DNA of 60,671 bases, from the NCBI GenBank assembly GCA_002478275.1, contig DLMY01000054.1, positions 1 through 60,671 on the forward strand. The letters are read 5' to 3'. Origin of the DNA: Actinobacteria bacterium UBA7524 (GTDB lineage: Bacteria > Actinomycetota > Coriobacteriia > Anaerosomatales > UBA912). Numbering within the stretch: position 1 is the stretch's first letter; every line of letters starts with the position of its first letter. The notes under the pieces are model-generated. The model worked only from the letters and a program-made list of their open reading frames with translations, made no database searches and was not told the DNA's origin. Shown piece by piece: positions 4,237 through 47,030 of this stretch. Position numbers and translations under genes: made by a program.

Positions 4237-4242
4237 CCTCCC

Positions 4243-4686
4243 TCATTCGGCCGAGGACGTGGTGTCATCCGGGTCGTCCTCGGGGGACGACCCGATCGTC
4301 TGGCGCGCGAATGACACGGCCCTCCCGCGACAGGTGTCGTAGAACCGCTGGGCCTCGGCCGTGCTGAAGTCGCACTGCTGCACGAGCACCTCGAGGCTGA
4401 GGAACGTGGCAGTCGCTGACGCGATCACTCCCTTCGCGATGAGAGAGCGAACCGCCGCCGCGAGACGCTCCGAAGCGTCTCGCGTTGCGGCGAAGACCAT
4501 CTGCTCGAGCGTCCCGCGCTGGGCCTCGTAGGCGTCGGATGTCAGGCAGAATTCCACGTACTCGTGCGCCAGGGTTGTAGGCGGCACGCCACGCGCCGCA
4601 GCCACCTTCGCAAGAAGCTCGTAGGTCTGCTCATCAAGCCGCAACGCCACTCGCTTACCGCCTGCACTTGTCGTTGTCACAGTCAT
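4243..4686 (-). CDS. MobC-like relaxosome accessory protein (ribbon-helix-helix)
   Basis: KRVALRLDEQTYELLAKVAAARGV RHH-like N-terminus; directly upstream of the relaxase; start reassigned to ATG at 4686. Confidence 0.65.
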   Translation of the reverse strand: MTVTTTSAGGKRVALRLDEQTYELLAKVAAARGVPPTTLAHEYVEFCLTSDAYEAQRGTLEQMVFAATRDASERLAAAVRSLIAKGVIASATATFLSLEVLVQQCDFSTAEAQRFYDTCRGRAVSFARQTIGSSPEDDPDDTTSSAE

Positions 4687-4699
4687 CACCACTTCCGAA

Positions 4700-4860
4700 T
4701 TCGTGCTTGTCTGGGATGGCAACCACCGCGCACCGTGTGGTTGCCAGATGAAACCGCCAGCTGCGGCGGGATTTCCCCTGCTCACCGGCACCGCCGGGGA
4801 TGCGTAGCCCTCCGCCTGTTGCGCTCGTGGCAACAGGCCTTATCCTGCCTTCGTTTCAGA
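4700..4860. other. candidate oriT region
   Basis: inverted repeats tggcaaccac/gtggttgcca (4717-4746) and gcctgttgc/gcaacaggc (about 4815-4838) upstream of mobC-relaxase. Confidence 0.5.
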
Positions 4861-23878: not shown

Positions 23879-23936
23879 TGGTGCCCCCAAGGGAATTCGA
23901 ATCCCGATAGTGCTTGTGACTATTGGGACTCGTTGG
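23879..23936 (-). mobile_element. att-like site: tRNA(Glu)-like 3' fragment plus element end, copy 1
   Basis: reverse complement GGGATTCGAATTCCCTTGGGGGCACCA (T-loop, acceptor strand, CCA); 56/58 identical to 60614-60671. Confidence 0.88.
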
Positions 23937-24188: not shown

Positions 24189-25013
24189 TTAGCCGTCAAC
24201 CGCGAACTCCATCGTCTCGATCAACCCCGACATCACCGAGAAGGCGTACTGCCTGAACTGCTCGTCGCTCAGGCCGGGGAAGGCCGTGGGCGGCTTCTGG
24301 TTGAGAAGCGCATCGACACCACTAGACTCCGGCCCGTCGAAGATCGCGTTCAGGTTCTTGAGGCTCTTCTTGAACCATGCCGGCTTCTGCGCGGCGAGGC
24401 GCTCGAGTTCCGCGTCGATCGCCTCTCGCCACTCCGGAAATGCGTCCAGCACGAAGAAGACGTAGTAGAGATCCTTCTCCGCTTTGAGCCGGTCCCGGCG
24501 ATTCCTGAACACCAGCGACTTGTGGAAGACGAAGGTGCCGGGCCTCGGGACGAGGATCGTCAGGGCGACGACTCCGTCGGTCAGGCCGGCGAGGTCGACC
24601 GGCCACGGGCTATCGAGCAGGAGCCCGACGTAGTGCAGCTCTTGGGCCGTGAGATCGGGCTGCACCATGATCGCGGCCTCGGACGCGCCTGGCGCGTCGG
24701 TGATGAACTCGATCTCTACTTCGTCATCGCCAAGGGTCGCGACGTACTTCGTGACTGGCGGCGAATCCAGCGAGTGGAACTCACAGCGGAAGCTGGCACT
24801 CTTGAGCAGCTCATCGATGCTCCGGCTCCTGACGGGCACCGACCGGGGCACGGCGAGGTCGATGTCGCGTGTCCGAGGTGACCGGCCCGCCGCGGCGGCA
24901 TCGTAGAGGAGTTCGTAGATGTGCGGCACCCATCCCCCGGCAACGACGACCACGTCGAGGTAGGGTTCGATGGCGGCAAGGCCGCGCGCAAGGACCGGGT
25001 CGAGCCGGCTCAC
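24189..25013 (-). CDS. nucleotidyltransferase-fold protein (AbiEii-like toxin)
   Basis: VVVAGGW...RTRDIDL and FHK...KAEKDLYY motifs. Confidence 0.8.
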   Translation of the reverse strand: MSRLDPVLARGLAAIEPYLDVVVVAGGWVPHIYELLYDAAAAGRSPRTRDIDLAVPRSVPVRSRSIDELLKSASFRCEFHSLDSPPVTKYVATLGDDEVEIEFITDAPGASEAAIMVQPDLTAQELHYVGLLLDSPWPVDLAGLTDGVVALTILVPRPGTFVFHKSLVFRNRRDRLKAEKDLYYVFFVLDAFPEWREAIDAELERLAAQKPAWFKKSLKNLNAIFDGPESSGVDALLNQKPPTAFPGLSDEQFRQYAFSVMSGLIETMEFAVDG

Positions 25014-26283
25014 GGTCGATCATCCCGTTCCACGAGCGAGCGCAGGCGTCGTTCGTAGAGGTGCTCGGCCTGCTCCCGGCCACGGACGGGATAGTCGTAG
25101 AGGTCCAGATAGAGCTGGAGGTCGGAGGCCACGCTGATCCCGCCTTTCGACATCTGCCGGTCGTAGAACGCCGACTCCCGGTAGTAGGGCACCGATATGT
25201 TGACGTTGCCGCCGCGCTCGACTCGCCGTGCGCCGAGGGCTGCAAGCGCTGGCACCGCATCTTCGAGTTCCCTGACGTAGACGTCCGCGACGTCGAACAC
25301 AGTGTAGCGGTCGACGAGACTCGCACCGGCGTGGCCCGTGAGGACGTAGTCGGCACCCTTGGCGTCGAACGCCTCGGCGATGCGGGGCAGGAGGTCCTCA
25401 GCGCTCGGCGCGAGGACGAAATAGCTTGCCGGGACCGGCCGGCGACGACCTCGATACGCCGAGGTCCAGTCGCGCAGCAGCTCGTTGGCATGGCGAAGCA
25501 TGATCTTCTCATCGCTCCTGGACACGTAGCCGCGCCTCTCGAGCTCCCCNNNNNNNNNNNNNNNNNNNNNNNNNNNNNNNNNNNNNNNNNNNNNNNNNNN
25601 NNNNNNNNNNNNNNNNNNNNNNNNNNNNNNNNNNNNNNNNNNNNNNNNNNNNNNNNNNNNNNNNNNNNNNNNNNNNNNNNNNNNNNNNNNNNNNNNNNNT
25701 AGCCGCGCCTCTCGAGCTCCCCGACCATCTTGGACACATAGCCCGGGGTGAGCCCGATCCGCTCGTCTTTCGATCTGACGGTGTTCGCTATCTCACGCAC
25801 ACCCATCGGGGAGCGCGCGACGAGGAGGGTGCGGAGCACGAGCGACGCCTTGTCGGAGAAGAGGTCGCGTTGCCCGCGCTCTTCCTTGCCGGGGTTGGCG
25901 AAGCCGCGGCGATCGATGTGGATCCCCGGCACCACGAGCCACGCGTTGCCCGCGTAGTCGATGAAGGCCGCGTTCGCGTCGCGCAGCAACTGCTGGCTGG
26001 CCGGGCTGAGGTATGCCGAAGCGATGACCGTGATCGAGGATCCTTCCCCCGCGGGGGCAAGGCGCGCCAGCTCGGCGGCATCGATCAGCTGCGCCCGGCT
26101 GAAGGCGTGTTGCAGCATGACCCGGAGATGAAGACTCCCGTTCGCGAAACGCACGTCAACCTCGGCCGCTGATGCATGGCCGCGCAACTGGCTCGGACTC
26201 AGCTCGACGGCCGCGCCAGGGAAGATCTCCCGAAGCGCGTGCTTCAGACTTTGATACTCGTCGTCCATGCTTGCAGCAGCCAT
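25010..26283 (-). CDS. AbiEi-like type IV TA antitoxin (spans an assembly gap)
   Basis: SAYLSP, FIDYAGN, wHTH region and C-terminal ASDLQLYLDLYDYPVRGREQAEHL; gap flanks share tagccgcgcctctcgagctcccc. Confidence 0.8.
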
Positions 26284-26337
26284 GTTTCCTCCGACATATC
26301 TGTTTCCCACACAGGAAACACCATACTCCTTGGAAAC
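26283..26337. promoter_or_regulatory. candidate AbiEi operator repeats
   Basis: tgtttcc twice and ggaaac twice, including the IR tgtttcc-cacaca-ggaaaca at 26301-26320. Confidence 0.5.
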
Positions 26338-26404
26338 CTTCGCGGCAAATGGCACCGTTCACGCATTCCTCAGGCGACGGCTCCAACTGCGGCCCGAATA
26401 CTGC

Positions 26405-28522
26405 CTATCGCTTCCACTTCAGGAGCCGAATCCCGTTTACTGTGACTATGATCGATGCACCCATGTCGGCCATGATCGCCATCCACAGTGTGAGCCATCC
26501 GGGGAACATGAGCAGCAGCGCGAGCATCTTGATGCCGATCGCAAACGCGATGTTGACCTTGATCGTCCGCAGCGCCGCGCGGCTCAGCCCAACGGCGAAG
26601 GGAAGCTGCGCCAGGTCATCGGCCATGAGGGCGATATCGGCCGTTTCAAGCGCGGTGTCGGTTCCTGCTCCCCCCATGGCGATGCCGACGGTCGCGGTCG
26701 CCAGCGCCGGAGCGTCGTTCACGCCGTCGCCGACCATCGCGACCTGACCATACTCGCCCATCAGACTCGTCACGGCGCTGAGCTTCGCTTCAGGCAGCAA
26801 CCCGGCCCGGAACTCATCGACGCCGGCCTGGGCTGTGATCGCTGCTGCTGCTGCCGGGTTGTCACCAGTCAACATGATCGTGTGTTCGATGCCCATCTGC
26901 TTCAGTGCCGCCACGGCATCCTGGCTCGTGTCGCGGACCGCGTCGGAGATGCCGATGACCCCGATGAGAACCCCGTCCCGCTCGACGAGCACTGCGGTCT
27001 TGCCATCCCCATGCAACGCAATGACAGCAGACTCCGCATGAGCGAAGTCCGTGTTGTCGGCAAGCATCCCGGGACTGCCGACCGCCATCTCATGTCCGTC
27101 GACCGCGGCCTTCACTCCGAGACCCGACAGGGATTGCATCTCATGGATGGGCAGCAGCGCTATGGAGCGTGCTTCGGCCTCGCGAACGATCGCGGCCGCA
27201 AGTGGATGTTGCGAACCGCACTCCAGCGACGCCGCCAGCTGAAGCAACCTGGTCTCATCGGTGCCGCTCAGAGGCACCACATCGGTAACCGATGGTCGAC
27301 CCTCGGTGAGCGTGCCGGTCTTGTCGAAAGCGATGGCCCGTATCGCACCCATCTGTTCCAGGTGGATGCCGCCCTTGATAAGGACACCGTGCCTGGCAGC
27401 ATTGCTGATGGCACTGACGATCGATACCGGCGTGGAGACCACGAGAGCACACGGGCAAGAGACGATGAGCAAGGAGAGTCCACGGTATATCCACGGCTCC
27501 CACGCCTGAGCGAAGAGCAGCGGGGGTGCGAGCACAACCCCTGCAGCAAGTGCCAGGACTACCGGCGTGTAGACCGCAGCGAACTTGTCGACGAACGCCT
27601 GGGACGGAGCCCGTTTGGTCTGCGCCTCCTCGACCATGTGCACGATGCGGGCAACGGTCGTATCGTGCACCAGGCGCGTCACACGCACCCTCAGCAGACC
27701 CTCGCCGTTGAGCGTCCCAGCGAACACCTCCGCGCCTTCGGCCTTCTCGGCAGGGACAGACTCGCCGGTGATGGTCGCCTCGTCCAGGGTGGACGCTCCC
27801 GCCTCGATGAGGCCGTCAAGCGCGAGCTTCTCGCCGGGACGCACGACCATCAGGTCCCCCACGGCGACGCCCTCGACTGGCATCTCCGTGATGTGGCCAT
27901 CGGGGATTTGGATGCGAGCGGTCTTAGGGACCCCGCCCATCAGGTCGCCGATCGAGCGCCGTGCACGCTCCATGGTCCAGGACTCGAGCATCTCGGATGC
28001 GGAGAACAGGAAGGCCACGACCGCCGCCTCCTCCCAGGCGCCGATAGCACCAGCACCGAGGATGGCCACTGACATGAGCACGCTCATGTTGAAATCGAGC
28101 TTGGGAAGAGAGAACGCTGCCTTGCGCAAGTTGCTCCAACCACCGAGCACGATCACGGCTATGTAGAGCGACATGAATACAGGGCTGGCTGCGCCCAGTC
28201 TCTCGGCTGCGGCGCCGACCGCGAGCAGAACCCCAGACGCGATCGTTCGAACCAGCTCCCAATCGACACCCTCTTCTGTCTGCGGCGCGGCGCAGCGCCC
28301 TTCGGCGGTCTGGATCCGGTAGCTCTCCTTGCGGCCTTCAGCCCTGATGGCGTCGAGGTCCAGCGCGCCCTCAATCACGAGCTTGCCCGCCGTCGGATTG
28401 AGCTGTACCCCGGTCACGCCGGGGAGTCTGGCCACGTTCTTCTCGAACTTGGCCGCACAGTCGAGTCAAGTGATTCCTTCGATGAGCAGGGTGTGCTTCT
28501 GTGTGTCGAAGGGTGCTGGCAT
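26405..28522 (-). CDS. cadA: heavy-metal P1B-type ATPase (CadA/ZntA-like), probable selenoprotein
   Basis: TGES, CPC, DKTGT and GDGVNDAP; AGGAGG plus ATG at 28522 reads EGIT-UGA-LDC in frame (HMA CxxC position). Confidence 0.9.
28430..28454 (-). promoter_or_regulatory. candidate bacterial SECIS element
   Basis: GGCCA-A-GUUC-GAGAA-GAAC-G-UGGCC; apical loop begins with G, 21 nt after the UGA. Confidence 0.7.
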
Positions 28523-28553
28523 TGGTTGCCTCCTAGGTGCGGGCGGGATACAC

Positions 28554-28618
28554 TCAAACAGTCAAGCGTGTGTTTGAACATACTCGCCGTCCAGTATCAT
28601 AGTCAAGTAGCCACTTGA
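28554..28618. promoter_or_regulatory. CadC/SmtB-type operators
   Basis: IRs tcaaaca/tgtttga (28554-28577) and tcaagt-agcc-acttga (28603-28618) between the divergent cadA and cadC. Confidence 0.7.
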
Positions 28619-28634
28619 GTATTTTGGAGGTCAC

Positions 28635-29000
28635 ATGGGCAAGCAGGCCAACCCGCCCGTATGCGAAGTCGAGTGCGTGCACGCCGACAAGGTTGATGCG
28701 CTGCGCCCCGTCGTCGGTGGGCTCAATGGCGTCGGCGAGACGGTGGCGAACCTTGCCGACGATACCCGCTTCAAAGTGCTGTACGCCCTGAGCCAGTCCG
28801 AGCTCTGCGTCTGCGACGTTGCCGCGGTCGTGGGCGCAACGACGGCAGCCGCGTCGTATCACCTGCGCTTGCTCTATCGCACGGGACTCGTCGACTACCG
28901 CCGCGACGGGAGACTGGTCTACTATCGGCTGTCAGAGGACAGGATGCGCCCCGTCCTTGAGGCGATCAAGTCATACGTGCTCACTGCGCAGGTGCCCTAA
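28635..29000 (+). CDS. cadC: ArsR/SmtB (CadC-like) metalloregulator
   Basis: N-terminal CxxxC, LADDTR, ELCVCD and SYHLRLL. Confidence 0.9.
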   Translation: MGKQANPPVCEVECVHADKVDALRPVVGGLNGVGETVANLADDTRFKVLYALSQSELCVCDVAAVVGATTAAASYHLRLLYRTGLVDYRRDGRLVYYRLSEDRMRPVLEAIKSYVLTAQVP

Positions 29001-29043
29001 GCACCAGCGCAGACATGCCGGGCACTGCATACCCTCACGCAGA

Positions 29044-30075
29044 TCAGCGCGGTCCTCGGCCGACGTCAGGAGAGCGTACGAGTCTCGCAAACAACACCGT
29101 CCCGGCGAGGAACATCGGGTAGTAGACGCACGCGCGCCATCCGAGTGCTGCCGCTGCTGCCGACTGCGATCCCACGAGTGGGCCGAAGACCGTCACGATA
29201 GCCGCCTGCGCAACACCCTCTCCGCTCGGCGCCGGGGTGATCGAGGAGATGATCCACACGGCAACAAGCCCTGCGAGAAGCGTTCCCGGGATTGTTGCTC
29301 CGGTGCTTGCGAACAGCAAGGGAATGGCCGCGAGCTGACTGAAGCGCGAGACAGCGAAGACTATTAGTGCTCCGATCATCGACCCGGGGCGTCGTCCAAA
29401 CTCAGTGAACGTCTCGGCGAATCGTCCGATGTACGCCGGCGCGACGTCTGCGGCCTTGCTCAGCCACTCCAGACCGCTTTGTTCGCCGAGCCGGGACAGC
29501 AGACTCGCGAGACGCTCACCTGAGCGAGTTGGACTCTTTGTGATCACGATCATCAGGAGCACGGCCATGCTCGGTAGCACGACGATGAACACGGCGGCCC
29601 GAGGAAGCCCTGATATGCCCGGCAGCACGAGAGCGGCGGACAGCGTCATGCCGGTGAAGAACGTCGCGGCGACCGCAGAACGGGCGACAACCAGCGCGGC
29701 GGCATTCTCAATCGACACCTTCTCGCGCGTGAGCGCCCAGAGCCACGCGGGCGCTCCGCCGATCGCATACGGAGTGACCGCCCCGACGAAGTTGCCAGCG
29801 ACGTAGGCGCGCGTCATGCGTAGTGCCGTTCGAGGCCGAGGATCGCCAGCGATTATCGCAAGCACAGTGCCTTCGGCCACCATACTGATAGCCCCCAGCA
29901 TCACCGCACCAGCGACCGCCCACCAGGGAGTCGCGAGCAAGGCGTCGACGACGCCGTCGCGACCCGCTAGGACGGTGGTCACCGTGGCAGCAAGCGCCGC
30001 CACGGTGACCACCCCGATTCGCGCCACTCGCTGCTGGTGGCCGACGGAGAGCTTCGTGCCGTACCGCTGTCTCAC
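29044..30075 (-). CDS. lysylphosphatidylglycerol-synthase TM-domain (flippase-like) protein
   Basis: GNFVGAVTPYAIGG, TPAPSGEGVAQ and WRACVYY; polytopic; GTGA overlap with the radical SAM gene. Confidence 0.8.
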   Translation of the reverse strand: MRQRYGTKLSVGHQQRVARIGVVTVAALAATVTTVLAGRDGVVDALLATPWWAVAGAVMLGAISMVAEGTVLAIIAGDPRPRTALRMTRAYVAGNFVGAVTPYAIGGAPAWLWALTREKVSIENAAALVVARSAVAATFFTGMTLSAALVLPGISGLPRAAVFIVVLPSMAVLLMIVITKSPTRSGERLASLLSRLGEQSGLEWLSKAADVAPAYIGRFAETFTEFGRRPGSMIGALIVFAVSRFSQLAAIPLLFASTGATIPGTLLAGLVAVWIISSITPAPSGEGVAQAAIVTVFGPLVGSQSAAAAALGWRACVYYPMFLAGTVLFARLVRSPDVGRGPR

Positions 30076-31496
30076 TGTCTGGCGTTCGGGGTGCAGGTCT
30101 TCTCGGCGACACAGGGTGGCGCTTGAGACGACCCTCGACCGACGTCCTCCCATGCGGTATCGGCGATACGCCGATACGACTCGGCATAGTCGTCAAGCGC
30201 AGGAGCGAATTCGTCCAGCAGCCGGCGTGCTTGCGGATGAGTGGGGTAGGCGCCATGTGAAGCGACCACGTCACGCAGCACGTCGGTATTGTCGATGATC
30301 ATGCACGGACGCAGCAGGTTGTCGCTGTAGGGCTGACGCGAGCGTATGGCTTGGAAGAGCGGGCTGTTGAGCGCCTGGGCAAGCGGTACATGCTTGATGT
30401 TGTCCGTAGCGAAGTGCGCGAAGATGCACGGCTCCACATCGCCGTTCGCGTTGACGTGGAAGTATTGCCGTCCTCCCGCGATGCATCCTCCTACATACGG
30501 CGCGTCGTTCCAGAAGTCGATAACGAAGACCTCTTTGTTCATGCGGATCCACTGCGCGCCGCGTTGCCTGAGAAGTTCCCGCTGCTCCGGCGTCGGCATG
30601 AGTGAGAGGTCGGCGTCTTCGCCGACGGGCATGTAAAGGAAATGCCAACCCCAGAGGCATCCTTCGTCCACCAGCATGTCGATGAACTCATCGGCGATCA
30701 TGTCCTCACAGTTCGCCGAGGTTATCATCGAGGAGAATCCGAAGGGCACGCCTGCCGCCCTGAGATGGCGGAGACCTTCGATCGCACGATCGAACACGCC
30801 GTCGCCGCGTCGGGAGTCGTGCGCCTCCTTCAGGCCATCGACACTGACCGAGATCGAGATGTTGCCGAGCTCTGCAAGCCGGTGCGCGAGCGGCTCGGTC
30901 AAGAGAGTGCCGTTGCTGAATGCCATGAATGCCATATCATCGTGCCTTGCCGCAAGGTCAAGAACGTCAGAGCGCACGAATGGCTCGCCGCCCAGCAGAA
31001 TGATGTTGCTGATGCCGAGATCGTTCGCCTCAGAGAGAACGCGATCCATCACCTCATAAGACAGGTCGTCGTTCTTGGTGTAATCGGCTGCATAGCAGCC
31101 GGTGCAGTGCAGGTTGCAGCGCATCGTCGGACTCATGAGCATGATACTAGGCGGGCGGAAGCCCTGGTCTCGCAGTGCCGCATCTCGTTTCGTACGACCC
31201 CTCCAGGTACCGTTGACGAGCGCGTTGGTGAACAGGCGCGCGCGGCAGTCGGGCGCCGTCTGTCGCAGACCGCGGAGGGCGGTGCGTACCGGAGCCGGCA
31301 GCTCACCGTCGTCTCCTGGTTCGACGTACTTCCTCACGTTCGCGATGACCTGCTTGTGATCCTCGGCCGTCGCTATGCGGTCCGCCAGGTCCACAAGGCG
31401 CGTCAGTTGCTTCTCGGGCTTATCTCCGAGGATCCTCATGGCCTCTTTGACTGCATACTCGGTCGACTTCTGACGCAAGAGCTCTGTTGTTCCCAC
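30072..31496 (-). CDS. radical SAM/SPASM protein, paralogue A
   Basis: CNLHCTGC, LGGEPF and DFWNDAPYVGGCIAGGRQYFHVNANGDVEPCIF; start uncertain. Confidence 0.9.
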   Translation of the reverse strand: MGTTELLRQKSTEYAVKEAMRILGDKPEKQLTRLVDLADRIATAEDHKQVIANVRKYVEPGDDGELPAPVRTALRGLRQTAPDCRARLFTNALVNGTWRGRTKRDAALRDQGFRPPSIMLMSPTMRCNLHCTGCYAADYTKNDDLSYEVMDRVLSEANDLGISNIILLGGEPFVRSDVLDLAARHDDMAFMAFSNGTLLTEPLAHRLAELGNISISVSVDGLKEAHDSRRGDGVFDRAIEGLRHLRAAGVPFGFSSMITSANCEDMIADEFIDMLVDEGCLWGWHFLYMPVGEDADLSLMPTPEQRELLRQRGAQWIRMNKEVFVIDFWNDAPYVGGCIAGGRQYFHVNANGDVEPCIFAHFATDNIKHVPLAQALNSPLFQAIRSRQPYSDNLLRPCMIIDNTDVLRDVVASHGAYPTHPQARRLLDEFAPALDDYAESYRRIADTAWEDVGRGSSQAPPCVAEKTCTPNARQ

Positions 31497-31553
31497 AGTA
31501 CATCGCCTCCGTTTGTCGTGACGGCGCATCCCGGCAGTCTGGACCGCGAGGTC

Positions 31554-34145
31554 CTACCGAGTCGTGCTGGTATGCCCACGCGTTCTCGATCCCGAGATCG
31601 CCTTGTACGCTTCGAACCAGGCCACACCAGCGAATCCGGCGGCCAGAGCGATCAATGATTCGAGCAGTGAGATCTGACCGAAATGGAACGCGCTCCGAGC
31701 TGCTGGCACTGTCAGCAGCGCGAGCAGTAGCGCGCACGTGATGCCGAATATCCAGGGCAGCGTGCGGTTCCTCCTCTCTTTGAATGAACGCCATATCGAC
31801 AACCGCCACGAGCGGTTGATGAGAATCAGCGCGAGGTTGCCCACGACGAGAGTCACGAATGTGAGGGACCGCACCACCTCATCAGGTCTGTGCGCAAGAA
31901 TGCTCCAGAGATAGACGCCAAACACTGCCGCTAGCGTTGATGCGCCCTGGAGGAATGCGATCGTGAGTACTCGCCGTCCAAACATCGGCTCTCCGAGCCC
32001 TCGGGGAGCCAGGGTCATGATGTCCAGATCCACGGGTTCAGCTTCGAAGACCACCGAGCAGGCGGGATCGATGATGAGCTCAAGAAACGCGATCTGTGCC
32101 GGCATCAGCACAAGAGGCCAGTCGGTCACGAACACTGGGATGAGCGACATCCCGGCGATTGGCACATGTACCGCGATAATGTATGACATCGCCTTGCGCA
32201 GATTGTCGAAGATGCCACGGCCCTGGCGTATGCCTCCCGCGATGGAGGAGAAGTCGTCATCGGTGATGACGATGGCTGCCGATTCACGCGCCACATCCGT
32301 ACCGCGTGCGCCCATCGCGATGCCGATATCGGCTGCTCGCAGCGCGGGGGCGTCGTTCACGCCGTCGCCAGTCATGCCGACCACCTCGCCGTTGGTCTTC
32401 AGTGCGCGAATCAGGCGGAGTTTCTGCTCCGGGACCATTCGCGCAAAGACACTGACCGAGCCGATGCGGCGCGCAAGTTCCTCGTCAGACATTGCTTCGA
32501 GTTCCGGACCGGTGATGCACTCGGTCGGGCTCTGAAGGCCGATCTCGCGGGCGATCGCGAGTGCGGTCCCCGGATAGTCGCCGGTGATCATCACCGTGCG
32601 AACGCCAGCGCGCGCGCACTGCACGACCGCATCGGCGACACCGGGTCTGACCGGATCGTGCAGACCGGCAAGCCCAAGGTACTTGAAGTCGAAGTCGTGT
32701 TGCTCGGGAGGCAGACCCTCTTCACGGCTGAAGTACGCCTGCGCTACGCCGAGCACGCGCTGCCCATTGGCGGTTGCCGCCTCGACCTGGGCGGTCAGCC
32801 CTGCGAGCATTCCGGCATCGAAATGGCAAAGGTCGGCTATCGCCTCCGGAGCCCCCTTCGCTGCGATCACGTACTGGTCGCCGTCCGGGGAGCGCCAAAC
32901 GTGCGAGAGCGCCAACAGCCGCTCAGAGAGCGGGTACTCGCGGACAAGGTCCCAGTCGGCATGAAGATGCTCCGTCTCAGCGAGGTACTGTTCGCCGAGC
33001 ACCTTGAAGGCTGTGTCCATCGGGTCGAAGGGATCGACCGGTGAAGCCAGGACGGCGAACTCTGCGATCTGATGGAACCGCTCAGGTAGCGGCCCCTCAC
33101 CGATGCGGAATGCTTCCCCGTCCATGATGAGTTCGCGCACGGTCATCTGGTTCATGGTGAGTGTGCCGGTCTTGTCGACGCAGATGACTGTGGCGGAGCC
33201 GAGTGTCTCGAGCACGGGCGTCCGTCGTGTCAGCACGTGCTTCTGCGAGAGTCGCCAGGCGCCGAGCGCGAGAAACACGGTCAGTACGACCGGGAACTCC
33301 TCTGGAAGCATCGCCATGGCGGTGCCGATGCCCGCAAGCAGTCCCTCGAGCCAATGGCCCCGCGTGAGACCGTAGACCACAACGACAATCACAGCCGCGC
33401 CCAGTCCGAGTGCGGCAATCGTGCGCACGAGGCGGTCGACCTCGCGCTGCAGAGGCGTCCGCTCGGGCTCGATATCGCGTAGCGCAGCACCGATGCGGCC
33501 GAGCTCGGTCGCGATGCCCGTTCCCTTCACCAGTGCGATACCTTGGCCTTTCACCACCAGCGTGCCGGAGAACAGCCATGGCGTGGCATCACCCCCTGGC
33601 CGACCGATCGGCTCCGCGAGTACATCTCGATCGCACTCCGCCTTGCGAACCGGCACCGATTCTCCGGTGAGCGCAGACTCATCGACCGAGAGACTCATGC
33701 ATTCCATCAACACGGCGTCGGCCGGCACACGGTCGCCCTCGGCCAGCAACAGGCAGTCACCGCGTACGACATCACGACCGGGAATCCGTGTGCGCCTGCC
33801 GTCCCGCACCACGAGCGCTCGTGGTGCCGATAGGTCACGCAGCGCGCCCAGTGCATTCTCTGTCTTGTGCTCCTGATAGACCTCGATGCCTATCACGACC
33901 ACCACGAACGACATGAGAATGGCACCATCGAACGGCTCGGCTAGCAGGAAGTTCACAGTCCCTGCGCCCAGAAGCAGCAGCAACATCGGCTCACGGATGA
34001 CGTCCCACGCCTGTCGCAGCAGGGTACGTTTCCTCGCGGTCGGCAACTCGTTGGGGCCGTCTATGCTGAGCACTTCCGCCGCCTCGGCGGACGTCAGTCC
34101 GACAAGCCCGATGTCCTGCAGTCCTGTCAATGTGCATCCCCCCAT
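31554..34145 (-). CDS. type II cation-transporting P-type ATPase
   Basis: LTGES, PEEFP, DKTGTLT, KGAPE, TGD and GDGVNDAPAL. Confidence 0.92.
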   Translation of the reverse strand: MGGCTLTGLQDIGLVGLTSAEAAEVLSIDGPNELPTARKRTLLRQAWDVIREPMLLLLLGAGTVNFLLAEPFDGAILMSFVVVVIGIEVYQEHKTENALGALRDLSAPRALVVRDGRRTRIPGRDVVRGDCLLLAEGDRVPADAVLMECMSLSVDESALTGESVPVRKAECDRDVLAEPIGRPGGDATPWLFSGTLVVKGQGIALVKGTGIATELGRIGAALRDIEPERTPLQREVDRLVRTIAALGLGAAVIVVVVYGLTRGHWLEGLLAGIGTAMAMLPEEFPVVLTVFLALGAWRLSQKHVLTRRTPVLETLGSATVICVDKTGTLTMNQMTVRELIMDGEAFRIGEGPLPERFHQIAEFAVLASPVDPFDPMDTAFKVLGEQYLAETEHLHADWDLVREYPLSERLLALSHVWRSPDGDQYVIAAKGAPEAIADLCHFDAGMLAGLTAQVEAATANGQRVLGVAQAYFSREEGLPPEQHDFDFKYLGLAGLHDPVRPGVADAVVQCARAGVRTVMITGDYPGTALAIAREIGLQSPTECITGPELEAMSDEELARRIGSVSVFARMVPEQKLRLIRALKTNGEVVGMTGDGVNDAPALRAADIGIAMGARGTDVARESAAIVITDDDFSSIAGGIRQGRGIFDNLRKAMSYIIAVHVPIAGMSLIPVFVTDWPLVLMPAQIAFLELIIDPACSVVFEAEPVDLDIMTLAPRGLGEPMFGRRVLTIAFLQGASTLAAVFGVYLWSILAHRPDEVVRSLTFVTLVVGNLALILINRSWRLSIWRSFKERRNRTLPWIFGITCALLLALLTVPAARSAFHFGQISLLESLIALAAGFAGVAWFEAYKAISGSRTRGHTSTTR

Positions 34146-34170
34146 CGCAGAGAACCACCAAGCGCCCCAC

Positions 34171-35478
34171 TCATGATGTCTCGGTCAGCGCCGGGACACG
34201 CAGTCCAGGAAGCGTCATGAACAGTGCGGCCGAGAGGATCGCACCGACAGCTCCTAGCGCGAACGGTGCCCATGGGCCGACCGTGTCCCACAGAAGCCCG
34301 GCAAGAGCACTCGCGACGAGAGTCGTGATGCCGGTGACGGTGCCGAGAAGGCCGATGGAGGTGGCTCTCAGCTCTTGAGGCACGAGGTCGATTGCGAACG
34401 CCTTGCCGACACCGTCAGTTGCGGCGATGTAGAGTCCGTACACCGCGAATAGCGCGACGACTTGCCACGTCTCGGTGACGAATGCAAACCCAACGTAGAC
34501 CGCCGCAAAGACGAGCATTCCGCCCACAAGGACGAAGCGGCGATCGAGTCTATCGGAGAGATGACCAAACGGCAGACTCGCAAGCGCGTATACGAGGTTG
34601 TACAACGTGTAGACGAGCACGACGGCGGTCGTCGTGAAGCCTAGCTGCTTCGCACGCAGAATCAAGAACACATCGCTCGAGTTGACGAGCACGAAAGGCA
34701 GCCATGCCACAAGATAGAGCCGGAAGCGCGATGGGATGGACGACCAGCGCAGCGGCTCACGTTTCTCCGCGACGGAGCGTGTATCCACTGCGGGCTCAAC
34801 GATGGCGGGGTAGCGCCTCCGGCGGGCTGGGTCAGATACGGACAGAACCAGCAACGCTCCAATCAGACCGGGCACCACGGCCAGACCGATAACCTTGCGC
34901 AGATCCCCGTCGGCCGTCGAGAGCAGTACGAGTGCCAGCAACGGACCGACGACTGCGCCGAGCGTGTCCATGGTTCGATGCCAGCCGAAGGCCGCGCCAC
35001 ACACTGCCGGATCGGTGCTATCGGCAAGTATCGCGTCACGCGGAGCGGACCGGAAGCCCTTCCCGGTCCGGTCGAGGAGTCTTGCCACGAGCACAAGGGG
35101 CCACGTGTGAGAGAACGCGATCAGCAGCTTGGCGAGTGCCGACAGCGTGTATCCGCCGAAGACCAGCTCGATGCGTCGCCCCGTCCGGTCGGCGATGCGG
35201 CCGGACACGGTCTTGAGGATGGATGCGGTCGCCTCAGCCGCACCTTCGATGATGCCGACGATCGATGCGGGGGCGCCGAGCACGCTTGTGAGAAAGATCG
35301 GCATGAGCGGGTAGAGCATCTCAGAGGACACGTCGGCGAAGAAGGAGACGAGCCCGAGCCGCAGTACGTTCGGCGAGAGCGCGCGACGCCACGCGGGCCG
35401 AGTGTCTGGTTCGATCGCATCCGCCGGGGAGATCTCGCAGGTCTGGGGTTCAAGATCATCGTCTTGTGGACTAGGCAT
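34171..35478 (-). CDS. MFS transporter
   Basis: GRIADRTGRR and GHLSDRLDRR motif-A repeats; multiple TM segments. Confidence 0.9.
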   Translation of the reverse strand: MPSPQDDDLEPQTCEISPADAIEPDTRPAWRRALSPNVLRLGLVSFFADVSSEMLYPLMPIFLTSVLGAPASIVGIIEGAAEATASILKTVSGRIADRTGRRIELVFGGYTLSALAKLLIAFSHTWPLVLVARLLDRTGKGFRSAPRDAILADSTDPAVCGAAFGWHRTMDTLGAVVGPLLALVLLSTADGDLRKVIGLAVVPGLIGALLVLSVSDPARRRRYPAIVEPAVDTRSVAEKREPLRWSSIPSRFRLYLVAWLPFVLVNSSDVFLILRAKQLGFTTTAVVLVYTLYNLVYALASLPFGHLSDRLDRRFVLVGGMLVFAAVYVGFAFVTETWQVVALFAVYGLYIAATDGVGKAFAIDLVPQELRATSIGLLGTVTGITTLVASALAGLLWDTVGPWAPFALGAVGAILSAALFMTLPGLRVPALTETS

Positions 35479-37915
35479 CCGCGCGCACCTCGATCATCTG
35501 CGGGGCACGTGAGCTGACGTGCTTGCGCACCTCGAGCAAGGACATCCACGCAACGACGAGCAGCGGTGTGATGAGTGCCGTTCTGATCGGCAGCGCTGAG
35601 AGATCGAGCCGCAACGCGATTCCAGGTATCCCGAAGCTGACGACGAGGAATACCGCGGTCGCGAGTGCCCAGATGTTGACCACCTTGTTGGAGAAGACCC
35701 CGACGCTTGCGAGTGGCTGGCGGTCTGAGCGTGACACGAAGGCGAGGGCGACGTGTCCCACCATCCAGGCGAGGAAGGCGAGTGAGCTCTGCTGGTCGAC
35801 GGACATGCCGCTCGTCTGGGCATACCCGTACGCGGCGAATACGGGCATGAAGAGGAATGCACTCTTGAGGAAGAGGTCTTTGAGCTGCGGTCCGTCCAAG
35901 ATGTTCGTGGTCATGGTCTCAGGGCGACGTGTGCGGATGTCGCCCTCGGCCGGCTCGGCCACGAAGCCCGCCGAGGCGGCAAGGTCCATGAACAACTCCA
36001 AGAGGATGATCTGCACCGGTGAAAAGGGCAGCGGAAGACCGAACACGGCCGGGAGCAGGAAGACGAGGATCAGCGCGGCCTTCACTGACAGGTAGTACTT
36101 CACGCCTTTGCGGAGGTTGTCGTGGAAGCTGCGTCCCTCGAACACCGCATGTGCGATCGTTGCGTAGTCATCGTCAGCCAGTACGGCATCTGCCGCCTCC
36201 TTGGCGACGTCGGTGCCACGGACTCCCATGGCGATGCCGATGTCTGCGGCCTTGATCGCCAGTGCGTCGTTGATGCCGTCACCGGTGACGGCGACGCTCA
36301 GGCCAGCACGCTGTAGCGCAGCGACGATACGATACTTGTGCTGTGCTGTGGTTCGCGCGAAGACACTCACGTGCCTGACGCACTCGCCGAGCGCCTGATC
36401 GTCCATCGCGTTCAGCGCATCGCCGGTGACGACGGCCGGGGCCCCGTCGCCGATGCCCGCCTTGAAGGCGATCGCGGCGGCGGTTGCGGGATGGTCGCCG
36501 GTCACCATGATGGTCCGGACGCCAGCGTCTTTCATGGCTGTGATCGCCCCGGGCACCTCGGGACGGAGGGGGTCGGAGAACGTCAACAGCGCAACGAACC
36601 CTAGATCTCGTTCGAGCTCTTCGAACGGTACATCCGCGTTCTCGTCGGTGACCATCGCCAGCGCGACGGCGATGAGACGGCTTCCCTTGGCGGTCTCCGT
36701 ATCAAGGGTATCCCGAACGCTGTCCGGCACGAACGCACACCGTTCGAACACCTGCTCGGGTGCCCCGCTCACAAGGAGCGTGCCGTCTTCTCGCAGCACC
36801 GCTCTGGTCTTGCTGCCTTCGCCAAGGTCGCGTTTGCGCACGATCCCGCGAGTGTCGAGCGACACGCCGAGTGCCTCGGCATGTCGCATGAGCGCGAGAT
36901 CTATAGGTGTTGCGTCGATCGCAGAGACTGCGCCCAACGCGGCGGCCACGGCGTCTTCATCGGTGAGAAGTGAGGAGATGCCGGTGAGCGTCATGCGACT
37001 CTGTGTCAATGTCCCGGTCTTGTCGGTGACGATGACATTCACGCTGCCCATACTCTCGGCGGCCGCGAGGCGTCTGACGAGAAAACCCTTCTTGGACAGC
37101 CGATAGGATCCTAGGCCGAGCACCATCGTTATGATGATCGGCATCTCCTCTGGGATGGTGGCGAAGGACAATGACAAACCAATGAGAAGCATTTCATCGA
37201 GTGGTCTGCCCTGCAGCACGCCGATGAGCGGAATCGCGACCGAGAAGGCCACGGCGACCCAGACAAGTCTGCCCGAGAGGTCCTTCATCGCCTTCTGCAG
37301 CGGCGTCTTCGGAGACCTCACGGTCTCGAGGCCCTCGGCGAGCGTGCCGAGCCTCGTCGCTTTGCCCGTGGCGCTGACTTCGGCGATGCCGTCTCCAGCG
37401 ATCACCACGGTTCCTGCGTACACCTCATCGCCCACGGCCTTCTCGGCGGGGAAGGACTCGCCGGTGATGGAGGCCTCATCGATGTGGACACCGACGGTGT
37501 CAAGCATCGTGGCGTCGGCAGCCGTCTTCGTGCCTGGAGCGAGTATGAGCAGGTCGCCAGGTACGATGGCAGCGGCGTCGACCTGAACCGCAAGGCCATC
37601 TCGCATCACGGTGGCCCTGGGACTCGTGATCTCCGACAGGCGCTGGATGGCCTTCTTGGCGCGGTACTCGTTCTGCACTTCGGCCAGGGCGAGGAGGAGG
37701 ATGACCGCAAAGATGGTTATCGCGTCGCCTGGCTCGCCCAGCAAGGAGTACAGGACGCCGACGACAAGCAGGAGCAGGATCATCGGCTCCCGTAGCTCCT
37801 CCCAAAGGATGTCCCAGAAGGTGATGCCCGAGGGGGAGATGATGACATTGGGTCCCGCGACGCTAAGTCGTTGTGATGCCTCGTTCGACGTCAGGCCGTC
37901 GTAGTGCGTGCGCAT
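35471..37915 (-). CDS. type II cation-transporting P-type ATPase
   Basis: ITGES, PEEMP, DKTGTLT, TGD and GDGINDALA. Confidence 0.92.
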   Translation of the reverse strand: MRTHYDGLTSNEASQRLSVAGPNVIISPSGITFWDILWEELREPMILLLLVVGVLYSLLGEPGDAITIFAVILLLALAEVQNEYRAKKAIQRLSEITSPRATVMRDGLAVQVDAAAIVPGDLLILAPGTKTAADATMLDTVGVHIDEASITGESFPAEKAVGDEVYAGTVVIAGDGIAEVSATGKATRLGTLAEGLETVRSPKTPLQKAMKDLSGRLVWVAVAFSVAIPLIGVLQGRPLDEMLLIGLSLSFATIPEEMPIIITMVLGLGSYRLSKKGFLVRRLAAAESMGSVNVIVTDKTGTLTQSRMTLTGISSLLTDEDAVAAALGAVSAIDATPIDLALMRHAEALGVSLDTRGIVRKRDLGEGSKTRAVLREDGTLLVSGAPEQVFERCAFVPDSVRDTLDTETAKGSRLIAVALAMVTDENADVPFEELERDLGFVALLTFSDPLRPEVPGAITAMKDAGVRTIMVTGDHPATAAAIAFKAGIGDGAPAVVTGDALNAMDDQALGECVRHVSVFARTTAQHKYRIVAALQRAGLSVAVTGDGINDALAIKAADIGIAMGVRGTDVAKEAADAVLADDDYATIAHAVFEGRSFHDNLRKGVKYYLSVKAALILVFLLPAVFGLPLPFSPVQIILLELFMDLAASAGFVAEPAEGDIRTRRPETMTTNILDGPQLKDLFLKSAFLFMPVFAAYGYAQTSGMSVDQQSSLAFLAWMVGHVALAFVSRSDRQPLASVGVFSNKVVNIWALATAVFLVVSFGIPGIALRLDLSALPIRTALITPLLVVAWMSLLEVRKHVSSRAPQMIEVRADA

Positions 37916-37963
37916 ATAGGATCAGCTCCGAGTGTTCGCGTGAGGATCGTCGAGTGGCAGGAC

Positions 37964-38758
37964 CTACCACTCGACCTCGAGTTCCAGCTTGCGCTTGCCA
38001 TTTCGATCCAGGTACTTGACCTCAAGCACCGCAGACGGCGGCAACGTACCGACTTGTGTCTCGTTGACAGCGAGCTGGTCGTGCTCCAGTTCATCGACGA
38101 TCTGATGCAGGCGCTCGATGATGTCAGCTCGCGCGAGAACGTCGCGCTTCTTGATCTTCACTGCTGGAGCTGCATCCTCGGGGGTGGCCGCCCCCTCCTG
38201 TGAACCGCTCTCTACGTTCGGCGCGAGCGTGGGCACTGACGAGGACTCCTCGAGACATGCTTGCGCCCGGTGCAGCAGTTCAAGCACTCTCGTGCGCTGC
38301 GCCGCGGCGAAGTAGTCTCGGGAGGTGATCGCCTCGAATAGTGCGCGAGCGCGATCGAGGTCGCCGCGGGCGTCCTCGATCTCGCTTTCATCGAAGGTGC
38401 CGCGTGCGACCTTCCGGCCGATGTGACTGATGATCTCCTCCAGGTCTTCGGCGACCTCGGCGTACTCTTCGTCACGAAGTCGGTCGAGTTCTGCGACGAA
38501 CTGCGCTTCCTTCTCGGGGTCGATGGACGGAATCTCGAGGATCGTGCCCTCGCCGCCACCTTGCTCAACTTGTCGCATGAGTTGCGAGAGACCAAGGCGC
38601 ACCTCGGGAGTATCTGGGAACAGATACGTCGACTGCTGGATGGCCAATCCGCCGAGTTCCTTGGCCTGTCTCCACACCCCCACGCGCAGTGTCGACGGCT
38701 TGGTCGGTACGCGGTAGATGGCGGTGAGCCACGCTTGGCCGATGGGGCGCTTAGACAT
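37964..38758 (-). CDS. ChrB-N-like protein fused to a C-terminal amphi-Trp-like domain
   Basis: YRVPTKPSTLRVGVWR...LAIQQS and RDYF (ChrB-like); ends KLELEVEW. Confidence 0.7.
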   Translation of the reverse strand: MSKRPIGQAWLTAIYRVPTKPSTLRVGVWRQAKELGGLAIQQSTYLFPDTPEVRLGLSQLMRQVEQGGGEGTILEIPSIDPEKEAQFVAELDRLRDEEYAEVAEDLEEIISHIGRKVARGTFDESEIEDARGDLDRARALFEAITSRDYFAAAQRTRVLELLHRAQACLEESSSVPTLAPNVESGSQEGAATPEDAAPAVKIKKRDVLARADIIERLHQIVDELEHDQLAVNETQVGTLPPSAVLEVKYLDRNGKRKLELEVEW

Positions 38759-38780
38759 CACAGTCTCCAAGTCTCAGGGA

Positions 38781-46037: not shown

Positions 46038-46916
46038 GTGTACGACGCCCTGCTGATCACCGATTCCGGTTGTGACCTGCCGCGCGAGGCCCTTGAGGAA
46101 GCGGGCATAGAACTCCTGTACCTGCCCTTCTCTCTCGATAGCGATGAGCGACCCGACGAGGTGGAGCAGGGCCTCTCACCCGACGCATTCTACGACGCAC
46201 TTCGCGCCGGTGCCCGGTCGACCACCTCGCAAGTACGTTCACCGGACTGCGAGGCAGCCTTTCGGCGAGCGCATGACGCCGGCAAGGCGGCGATCCTGGT
46301 CACGATCTCCTCTGGTCTCAGTGCCTCGCACGATACAGCGCTCATGGCACGAGAGCGGTTCTTGCAGGAATTCCCTGATGCTCGGATACACGTCGTCGAT
46401 TCGCTCTCCGTCTCTGCCGGGCAGGGTCTGCTTGTGATGGAGATGGCCAGGAAGCTGGCTGACGGCGCATCGGCCGACACACTGGTCGAATGGGCAGAAG
46501 GCAACCGCCTGCGAGTCAACGCGGTGTTCACAGTCGACTCCTACGAGTACCTGGTGCGCGGAGGAAGGGTATCGCCCGCGGTCGCCGCTACGGGCTCGGT
46601 GCTCAACGTAAAGCCGGTGTTCCACGTTGATGCCGAAGGCCGGCTTGCCCCGTTCATGAGGGTCAGGGGGAGGCGACGCGCACTCTCGGCGCTGACCGAG
46701 GCGACTGCCGAACGGATCACCAGCCCCGGTGAGCAGACCGTCATCGTCAACCACGCACAGTGCCCTGAGGACGCAGATGCACTCGTCCGCATGGTCCAGG
46801 AACGCGTCGTTGTACAAGCGGTAAGGATCGGCCGCGTCGGAGTCATCATCGGCACGCACGTAGGTCCGAGCGGACTGGTTCTGGCCTTCTGGGGAAGGCC
46901 TCGGACCAACTCATGA
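46038..46916 (+). CDS. DegV/FakB-family fatty-acid-binding protein
   Basis: ITDSGCDL, TTSQ, ISSGLS, VVDS and GTHVGP. Confidence 0.92.
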   Translation: MYDALLITDSGCDLPREALEEAGIELLYLPFSLDSDERPDEVEQGLSPDAFYDALRAGARSTTSQVRSPDCEAAFRRAHDAGKAAILVTISSGLSASHDTALMARERFLQEFPDARIHVVDSLSVSAGQGLLVMEMARKLADGASADTLVEWAEGNRLRVNAVFTVDSYEYLVRGGRVSPAVAATGSVLNVKPVFHVDAEGRLAPFMRVRGRRRALSALTEATAERITSPGEQTVIVNHAQCPEDADALVRMVQERVVVQAVRIGRVGVIIGTHVGPSGLVLAFWGRPRTNS

Positions 46917-47030
46917 GTCACGTCGCAAGTACGGGAGCGGCGAAATGCCGAAGGGACTGCCAGGGCAAGTGATGGGGGCGGCTCGGCCACTTTGTGGAGG
47001 TTGTGCCCCGCGAGACCGGAAGGACATCGA

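Follow-up and report, generated by a model that had tools for sequence, protein, structure and literature searches.

A predicted selenocysteine-containing heavy-metal export ATPase and its candidate recoding hairpins in Actinobacteria bacterium UBA7524

Cation-transporting ATPases carrying a UxxC motif, in which U stands for selenocysteine (Sec), are an established entry in catalogs of predicted bacterial selenoproteins. They are listed as a "cation-transporting ATPase E1-E2, TIGR01525, UxxC" family in the 2007 selenoproteome table of Zhang & Gladyshev (PMC1976440), as UxxC, pfam00122 in the table of the 2008 Global Ocean Sampling (GOS) study (PMC2398784), with 25 organisms and 32 genes in the table of Peng et al. 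2016 (PMC5029168), and as TIGR01525, UxxC, one Sec, ABB15669.1 in the table of a 2026 review, whose passage on such transporters describes them as "predicted to contain Sec residues" with roles that "require further investigation" (PMC13188914). Here, we analyzed a gene on the minus strand of contig DLMY01000054.1 (assembly GCA_002478275.1) of Actinobacteria bacterium UBA7524, of which the whole stretch of 60,671 nucleotides (nt) constitutes what we call the window. This gene, at positions 26405-28522, would be a genuine selenoprotein gene, encoding a heavy-metal export ATPase with a G-I-T-Sec19-L-D-Cys22 loop, with a probability that we put at about 85% on the grounds of sequence comparison. 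We favor this reading because cysteine (Cys) and TGA codons alternate among relatives at the position concerned, because TGA has long been retained there, because the frames upstream of it are open and led by a Shine-Dalgarno (SD) sequence, and because a hairpin of the bacterial selenocysteine insertion sequence (bSECIS) type follows it, with compensatory changes specific to TGA genes. An earlier model-made reading of the DNA alone (hereafter the sequence-only reading) had presented the gene as a hidden selenoprotein, but the gene is less new than that reading assumed, given the catalog entries, the first of which dates from 2007.

With respect to this catalogued family, the window protein hits the same model, bears the same motif and has a single Sec, the likeness being one of model and motif; the group of 16 tree rows in which it is found, all TGA and mostly Actinomycetota, is unnamed in the passages on the family in those papers. 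The gene can thus be described as adding one more member to a family of predicted selenoproteins, and its clade appears to be centred on Actinomycetota. What is new is modest: comparative proof for this clade, RNA-structure evidence that is specific to TGA genes, and a conserved second hairpin. Our literature searches found no paper on a selenocysteine-containing cation-transporting ATPase of Carboxydothermus, the organism from which we take ABB15669.1 to come, and nothing naming Coriobacteriia in connection with selenocysteine or selB. Term searches met no mention of a two-hairpin arrangement or of SECIS covariation in PMC13188914 and PMC1976440, and 0 occurrences of "ATPase" or "P-type" in preprint 10.1101/2022.07.06.499078.

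The best solved relatives of the pump are ZntA (4umv, E 5.8e-142, residues 10-702) and CadA (7qbz, 1.6e-126), and its scores exceed the cut-offs of both TIGR01525 (heavy-metal P-type ATPase, 587.3 bits for a cut-off of 346.25) and TIGR01512 (cadmium family, 509.6 bits for a cut-off of 313.5). Like ZntA and CadA (4umv/4umw, 7qbz/7qc0), it has one N-terminal heavy-metal-associated (HMA) domain together with the CPC, DKTGT, and GDGVNDAP motifs, but it differs from them by a Sec that replaces the leading Cys of the metal-binding motif in this domain. Since its scores for the E. coli-type equivalogs NF008262 (640/1005) and NF033775 (574/1240) stay under the respective cut-offs, it is no ZntA orthologue in NCBI's sense. 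The motifs legible in its translation (DKTGT, TGES, SCPC with its CPC, HP, GDGVNDAP, and a late ADMGAS), which cover P-type catalysis and the CPC and D-x-G metal sites of the membrane part, point, as we take it, to P-type subgroup P1B-2 (Zn/Cd/Pb, CadA/ZntA-like). A Sec in the metal-binding loop of an HMA-type fold is also found in the small, HMA/CopZ-like proteins of model NF041115 ("UxxU metal-binding (seleno)protein"), which the N-terminal 43 residues match weakly (21.5 bits, E 2e-4, cut-off 95); the window protein is not a member, having UxxC instead of UxxU and a domain fused to a pump instead of a free chaperone. A Sec ligand in the sensor domain of an efflux pump would be among the few predicted cases in which selenium serves as a metal ligand, not as a redox centre.

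The gene has a Shine-Dalgarno AGGAGG (28534-28529, minus strand), separated by a 6-nt spacer from what we regard as its true start codon, an ATG at 28522-28520, which stands 18 codons before the UGA at 28468-28466. The minus-strand text reads MPAPFDTQKHTLLIEGIT-TGA-LDCAAKFEKNV in the frame of the ATPase, and all of the coordinates of the sequence-only reading, as well as the two lengths that it gave, prove right. When TGA is translated as U, the frame 26405-28522 is open over 705 residues down to its stop (26407-26405), the UxxC motif being U19-L-D-C22 and U19 being the sole recoded codon, with no other TGA in the pump frame; 3' of the TGA, the frame is intact over 686 codons and keeps all catalytic motifs. 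The 18 codons 5' of the TGA form the first beta strand of the HMA domain (residues 11-60, 28343-28492, minus strand), and PF00403 matches the read-through protein with 36.5 bits (cut-off 24.8) when C is substituted for U, whereas a Pfam scan gives no HMA match in the 676-amino acid (aa) open reading frame (ORF) that genetic code table 11 yields at 26405-28435. The UGA thus occupies exactly the place that the leading Cys of G-x-T-C-x-x-C takes in HMA domains, as the sequence-only reading had it, PF00403 appearing only with read-through and Cys aligning with U19 in homologues. The GTG from which gene callers start the 676-aa ORF (28435-28433, minus strand) was considered as a genuine start and rejected: it has no good SD and lies inside the stem of the first hairpin described below, in its 3' arm (positions 34-36 counted from the UGA).

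TGA and cysteine codons among relatives

A search of a set of 5.8 billion proteins, in which 8000 candidates were scored and the best 120 examined, indicates how widely the truncation extends. Lengths of 670-689 aa and a lack of PF00403 characterize the 21 nearest proteins (80-99% identity), and at least 13 of them begin at the same false codon ("[MV]A.LPGV"). Over the 120 proteins, Cys is aligned with U19 in 68, and 49 start after the first-Cys position, 15 of these exactly at the next codon ("MDCA..."); three were unclear to the script, of which two have Cys by eye and one is ambiguous. The statement that ORF callers shorten the gene (676 instead of 705 aa) therefore extends to its 21 nearest database proteins, and it is because these entries start at a false codon, without the metal-binding motif, that annotation hides the selenoprotein: the database copies of the pump in the lineage of the window are mis-annotated, with a false start and a lost metal-binding motif.

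At the DNA level, a pattern scan of one genome per species in 185,579 species, accepting TGA, TGC, or TGT at the motif codon, retrieved 73 loci (designated by L numbers), with TGA in 34 and only TGC/TGT in 39. As three pairs of Cys-only loci overlap on one contig, these represent 70 distinct places, and the 81 distinct 222-nt contexts divide into 30 with TGA, 30 with TGC, and 21 with TGT. The alternation between Cys and UGA that the sequence-only reading had proposed to look for among homologues is thus present, and the close homologues all carry TGA, not TGC or TGT. With TGA standing at this codon in 34 of the 73 related loci, all from other genomes, the observation goes beyond chance, and on these comparisons the in-frame UGA is to be considered no nonsense mutation. 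TGA forms occur in Actinomycetota metagenome-assembled genomes (MAGs) labelled Coriobacteriia, Thermoleophilia, or "Actinobacteria bacterium," and in Bacillota, namely in Desulfofundulus thermobenzoicus, Neomoorella carbonis, Thermosediminibacter, Pelotomaculum, Desulfosporosinus, Desulfovirgula, Syntrophomonas, Dethiobacter, Limnochordia, and Alicyclobacillus sp. ALC3.

The frames around these TGA codons are open on both sides. Counting the window, at least 22 open codons precede the TGA in all 36 TGA instances, and an SD-led in-frame start is found 5' of it in 30 of the 36, mostly 14-22 codons before; the start is placed exactly 18 codons before the TGA, as in the window, with ATG in L021, L023, L026, L029, L037, L046, L049, L053, L064, and L070, and with GTG in L005 and L071. 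Downstream, the frame extends over at least 600 codons in 29 distinct TGA rows of the tree. The frame of L053 is short (388 codons), and L013, which belongs to the Cys group, has the appearance of a fortuitous or dead match.

The retention of TGA is deep. Over window positions 26370-31500, DNA identity is 91-94% to L023, L071, L029, and L005, 75-81% to L037, L021, L026, L046, L064, L070, L049, and L017, while other TGA loci reach about 65-71%, so that TGA has been retained in loci from 94% down to 65% identical to the window. We built a FastTree phylogeny of 64 pump cores that omits the HMA domain, with the 60 residues directly following the motif removed, along with short rows (L013, L037, L041, L053, L056) and duplicates (L026, L033, L052, L060, L070). 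In this phylogeny, the window falls in a clade of 10 rows (support 100), all TGA, itself nested in the 16-row group (support 91, not starred) that is all TGA and mostly made of Actinomycetota MAGs. The tree requires at least seven Sec/Cys changes, four of which are forced by well-supported branches, a number that is approximate, the phylogeny having been quickly built and containing some long branches. Over 200 codons, synonymous differences outnumber non-synonymous ones with respect to both L029 (53 vs. 28) and L023 (55 vs. 27); such counts are usable only for the 18 upstream codons and for indel-free relatives, and the 200-codon counts of L037, L019, L032, L015, L001, L009, L008, L011, and L043 were out of register and discarded. 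The four nearest loci (those with 91-94% DNA identity) are also intact, which, together with the mostly synonymous differences, points to selection on the translated product in the lineage of the window.

Some relatives stand out by their architecture. In L063 (3001-3261, Dethiobacter), the pump has two tandem HMA domains, one with TGA followed by one with TGT, and in L042 (3001-3252, Syntrophomonas) tandem HMA domains have TGA in both. The clean split between TGA and Cys forms, which includes the Sec and Cys domains side by side in L063, would offer natural pairs for testing the contribution of selenium. Furthermore, L021, labelled "Eubacteriales," shares the same 222-nt context and a near-identical pump with L026, L046, L064, and L070, labelled Actinomycetota, a likeness that reflects either a recent transfer of the cassette or an error of binning or labelling.

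Hairpins downstream of the TGA

As quoted in the relevant passages of a recent review, consensus bSECIS elements have a loop of 3-9 nt, an upper stem of 4-16 bp, and a G in the first two loop positions (PMC13188914), with 16-37 nt between the UGA and the loop and a folding energy of at most -7.5 kcal/mol (PMC13188914, section 5 and Fig. 2 legend). Taking the U of the UGA (28468) as position 1, the best SECIS candidate of the window gene is a hairpin at 28430-28454 on the minus strand (hairpin 1), with a 5-bp lower stem (15-19/35-39), a 1x1 mismatch, a 4-bp upper stem (21-24/30-33), and a GAGAA loop at 25-29. Folding therefore confirms the G-initiated loop 21 nt downstream that had been noticed in the bare sequence. 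The hairpin lies within the quoted limits on every count (loop of 5 nt, stem of 4 bp, G first, 21 nt, -14.5 kcal/mol), and, as in the bSECISearch model of the E. coli fdhF type, it is located within the coding region just after the UGA. Folded alone, it has a z-score of -4.74, with 0 of 200 shuffles as good; when the 63 nt after the UGA are considered, two hairpins form (-27.3 kcal/mol, z = -2.58, 3/200 shuffles as good). The second of these (hairpin 2; 28408-28424, minus strand, positions 45-61) has a 6-bp stem and a CGUGA loop and lies 47 nt after the UGA, which is beyond the 16-37 nt range of the consensus.

We evaluated the conservation of this two-hairpin structure in an alignment of 31 TGA segments, representing 27 distinct rows. 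In these 27 rows, 85.2% of the cells are paired, as opposed to 33.6-55.6% when the partners are slid by 1-3 columns, and none of 500 shuffles equals the real alignment in pairing, in double-change cells (33 vs. 13.6), or in covariation score (0.230 vs. 0.135). The compensatory pairs of hairpin 1 include 15-39 (C-G in 12 rows, G-C in 10), 18-36 (C-G in 12, G-C in 4, U-A in 1), and 24-30 (C-G in 13, U-G in 7, U-A in 6); in hairpin 2, pair 48-58 takes the form C-G in 12 rows and U-A in 11 out of the 27, the switch accompanying a change between Gly and Arg codons. The mean energy of the first 60 nt is -23.2 kcal/mol in the 31 TGA rows versus -14.7 kcal/mol in 50 Cys rows (one Cys row containing N being dropped), and the mean shuffle z-score is -2.35 versus -0.20 (Mann-Whitney p = 1.1e-10, uncorrected for phylogeny).

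Several features of the RNA nonetheless weigh against the selenoprotein reading. The loop of hairpin 1 begins with G-A (G-A-R-A-R), when G-G and G-U are commoner in bSECIS loops, and four TGA rows (L007, L042 twice, and L065) misfit hairpin 1 and fold a shifted hairpin, which is used by one subgroup (Desulfosporosinus, Syntrophomonas). On two of the five measures, the alignment does not outdo its shuffles, namely the number of pairs with a double change (331/500) and that of further pair types (316/500). The compensatory changes are partly structured by clade, pair 15-39 being G-C in Actinomycetota versus C-G in Bacillota, and the RNAalifold consensus retains only 10 pairs, with -8.44 kcal/mol, a covariation term of -0.87, and four compensatory pairs. 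In addition, 6 of the 50 Cys-form rows retain 9-11 of the 11 pairs of hairpin 1; these are L072 (all 11 pairs), L003, L036, the second motif of L063, L045, and L024, which may represent recent Sec-to-Cys conversions with a leftover SECIS. Finally, the peptide Ala-Ala...Val-Ala-Ala by itself dictates five of the seven pairs in the lower stem of hairpin 1.

Since these lower-stem pairs are forced by the peptide, the pairs at wobble positions are the informative ones. The wobble pairs 15-39, 18-36, 21-33, 24-30, and 48-58 are formed in 23, 18, 21, 26, and 23 of the 27 TGA rows, and in 24, 10, 20, 40, and 15 of the 50 Cys rows, where the observed pairing equals that expected if columns were independent. 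When rows are matched for the peptide, the same five pairs are formed in 21, 15, 20, 21, and 21 of 21 TGA rows, versus 2, 3, 7, 3, and 3 of 7 Cys rows. Coding constraint as the sole cause of the hairpin was rejected on this basis: the peptide-matched Cys genes keep the forced pairs, whereas their wobble pairs fall. The earlier claim that the element matches bacterial signals of Sec recoding is thereby strengthened, hairpin 1 agreeing with the published bSECIS description and showing compensatory changes specific to TGA genes.

Hairpin 2 is itself conserved. Its helix is 91.1% paired, with 4.61 of 5 pairs in TGA genes versus 2.18 of 5 in Cys genes, and its loop reads N-G-U-N-A across relatives, with G52 and U53 invariant. 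G-U is the dinucleotide gripped by SelB in solved SECIS complexes. It is tempting to imagine a bipartite recoding signal in which hairpin 2 would be the real docking site of SelB or a required helper, at a spacing outside of the current bSECIS model, an idea that we nevertheless hold to be unlikely. If it were true, this pump family would define a new class of SECIS, and the supply of selenium would gate the synthesis of the pump, thereby coupling selenium status to heavy-metal efflux.

Proposed mechanism and competing explanations

If the gene is read as encoding a selenoprotein, the following course of events can be envisioned. Once UGA-19 occupies the A site, hairpin 1 with its GAGAA loop, 15-39 nt further along the mRNA, would stay folded at the entrance of the mRNA channel, where SelB-GTP-Sec-tRNA(Sec) would bind it and insert Sec in competition with release factor 2 (RF2), so that translation of the pump could go on. 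In the resulting protein, Sec19 and Cys22, perhaps with Asp21, would chelate a soft divalent metal of the Cd/Zn/Pb class in the cytosolic sensor or regulatory domain, the selenolate possibly allowing a tighter or faster handling of the metal than a thiolate. When selenium or the Sec machinery is lacking, translation would stop after 18 residues and, with the GTG buried in the hairpin, little or no pump would be made. This course follows the established bacterial pathway, and the insertion of Sec in the host, the specificity for metals, and the contribution of selenium are inferred.

The simplest alternative would be a nonsense mutation or a sequencing error, under which either the 676-aa protein initiated at GTG 28435, whose HMA domain would be crippled, is the real product or the locus is a pseudogene. 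Gene callers do choose that ORF, database entries are alike, and P1B ATPases are presumably able to work without an N-terminal metal-binding domain. This explanation is scarcely credible, however, as TGA is found at the same codon in 34 of 73 independent loci of many genera, the 18 upstream codons remain open with an SD and a start, the GTG is devoid of a proper SD and sits within the hairpin stem, and a truncated HMA domain starting in mid-helix fits no domain model. Alternatively, the UGA could be read through in the absence of selenium, as Trp or Cys, by a near-cognate or suppressor tRNA or under an altered code, the hairpins just slowing the ribosome. The loop of hairpin 1, which is not of the commonest G-G/G-U type associated with SelB, and the position of the second hairpin outside of the usual SECIS spacing are in line with this proposal, yet we judge it very improbable: the codon alternates only with Cys codons at the position of a metal ligand, a pattern that marks Sec; catalogs already count the family among those of UxxC selenoproteins; and, among named cultured bacteria, TGA forms are present in Neomoorella, Desulfofundulus, Desulfosporosinus, and Thermosediminibacter, groups that we take to have selenoproteins. 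An altered genetic code was considered separately and rejected, TGA terminating 23 of the 52 selected ORFs of the window, whose code is therefore standard.

A subtler possibility is that of a fossil, in which case the gene would be a Sec gene by descent, acquired horizontally by a host whose Sec machinery is missing or has been lost, with a silent or truncated pump as the outcome. In its favor, and against the selenoprotein reading, no selA, selB, selD, or tRNA-Sec was detected in the 60.7-kb window by a tRNA scan and by Pfam on 52 ORFs. The segment is moreover bracketed by partial tRNA-Glu repeats and stands beside integrase, relaxase, and defence genes, and near-identical cassettes are present in MAGs labelled with different phyla (L021 on the one hand, L026, L046, L064, and L070 on the other hand). 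Some TGA copies do decay: the frame is broken after the TGA in 2 of the 34 TGA loci, at 42 codons in L037 and at 175 codons in L056, the latter being a second copy in Alicyclobacillus sp. ALC3 (an aerobe-type genus) whose other copy, L043, is intact. As a further reservation, the passages on the family in the cited catalogs and review contain no experimental proof for any of its members. Against the fossil, the downstream frame is intact over its 686 codons with all catalytic motifs present, the four nearest loci are intact and differ mostly by synonymous changes, which suggests selection on the translated product, and the entire 16-row group around the window retains TGA. A fossil is thus quite improbable in our view.

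Genomic surroundings and the question of a mobile island

Upstream of the pump gene and divergent from it, a gene on the plus strand (28635-29000) encodes a metalloregulator of the ArsR/SmtB family (PF01022, E 9.1e-13; NF033788, 79.7 bits for a cut-off of 55). The pair formed by the ArsR and pump genes is conserved in relatives, whose alignments reach window positions 28924-29035, and this arrangement presumably resembles that of cad operons; the ArsR/SmtB protein is probably the repressor of transcription of the pump gene. The 112-bp gap between the two genes contains an intergenic control region (28554-28622) whose function is inferred from one promoter-like site and two inverted repeats. 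The candidate promoter, on the minus strand, extends from a -35 TTGACT starting at 28606 to a -10 TATGTT ending at 28577, and the candidate operators are a TCAAACA-N10-TGTTTGA inverted repeat at 28554-28577 and another at 28599-28622, all of these being consensus matches only. On the same side, the cluster at 31554-38770 encodes a major facilitator superfamily (MFS) transporter flanked by two P2-type cation ATPases of 863 and 814 aa, as well as a protein with a ChrB_N domain; together with the ArsR-pump pair, this cluster is an ion- and metal-handling block. On the other side, just downstream of the pump, a 23-nt direct repeat is found at 25527-25549 and 25700-25722; L023 and L029 have one copy, without the intervening 150 nt, and the window therefore has a 173-bp insertion or duplication in ORF 24811-26355.

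With regard to the host, the nearest loci are labelled Actinomycetota, and the window encodes two tungsten-type aldehyde:ferredoxin oxidoreductases, radical SAM enzymes, and a ferredoxin, a gene content that suggests an anaerobe. No convincing second selenoprotein gene was found in the window among 224 TGA read-through candidates, 30 of which passed a filter on GC content at third codon positions (GC3). The two long candidates, at 2698-4833 (MobL and an upstream ORF) and at 46038-48692 (DegV and radical SAM), were rejected as adjacent genes in one frame.

The sequence-only reading had also placed the gene on a mobile island, a claim that our observations support only in part. In its support, a 58-nt direct repeat has a first copy at 23879-23936 and a second, 97% identical, at 60614-60671, where the end of the window cuts it (both on the minus strand); the att-like copies consist of 31 nt of non-tRNA sequence and the last 27 nt of a tRNA-Glu gene, and these 27 nt match without any difference the 3' terminus of the intact tRNA-Glu(UUC) that L059 carries (4343-4418), about 1.3 kb upstream of that locus's own Sec-pump cassette. 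The sequence following copy 2 resembles the L059 flank downstream of tRNA-Glu, with 80% identity between L059 4285-4368 and window 60554-60639. The repeats bracket 36.7 kb (23879-60671) that hold the pump gene, and such partial tRNA repeats are typical remnants of integrase-borne islands. Below 24 kb, moreover, lie a MobL-like relaxase (just under the Pfam cut-off), a type ISP restriction-modification gene, a DnaB-like helicase, a tyrosine integrase (14171-15397), GmrSD, and an AAA_13 ATPase, the integrase and relaxase genes being 11-24 kb from the pump.

On the other hand, there is no integrase inside the bracketed segment, the sole one of the window (14171-15397) lying outside of it, and no intact tRNA in the window. 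Neither repeat copy is a whole tRNA according to tRNA scans, and tRNA and Rfam scans detected no tRNA and no Rfam family in the window, nor any around the 23.9-kb repeat. GC content is flat across the window, and the flanks, which were compared with relatives over 3 kb only, misfit a simple single or tandem insertion. In the plasmid collection, no record covers more than 8% of 26300-29100, the cassette being on no known plasmid.

Two further observations come from elsewhere in the window. Toward its end, the ORF of an aldehyde:ferredoxin oxidoreductase at 57108-59152 has an N-terminal domain that matches only profile positions 141-196, and this gene may be disrupted or frameshifted; a 20-nt direct repeat occurs at 58509 and 58673, and GC content goes down to 0.564 in the 57-60 kb region. 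In the part below 24 kb, three tandem 33-nt units (12222-12320; two identical, one at 76%) stand at the start of ORF 12192-13130, beside the gene of the DnaB-like helicase; these units are iteron-like and possibly mark the replication origin of a mobile element.

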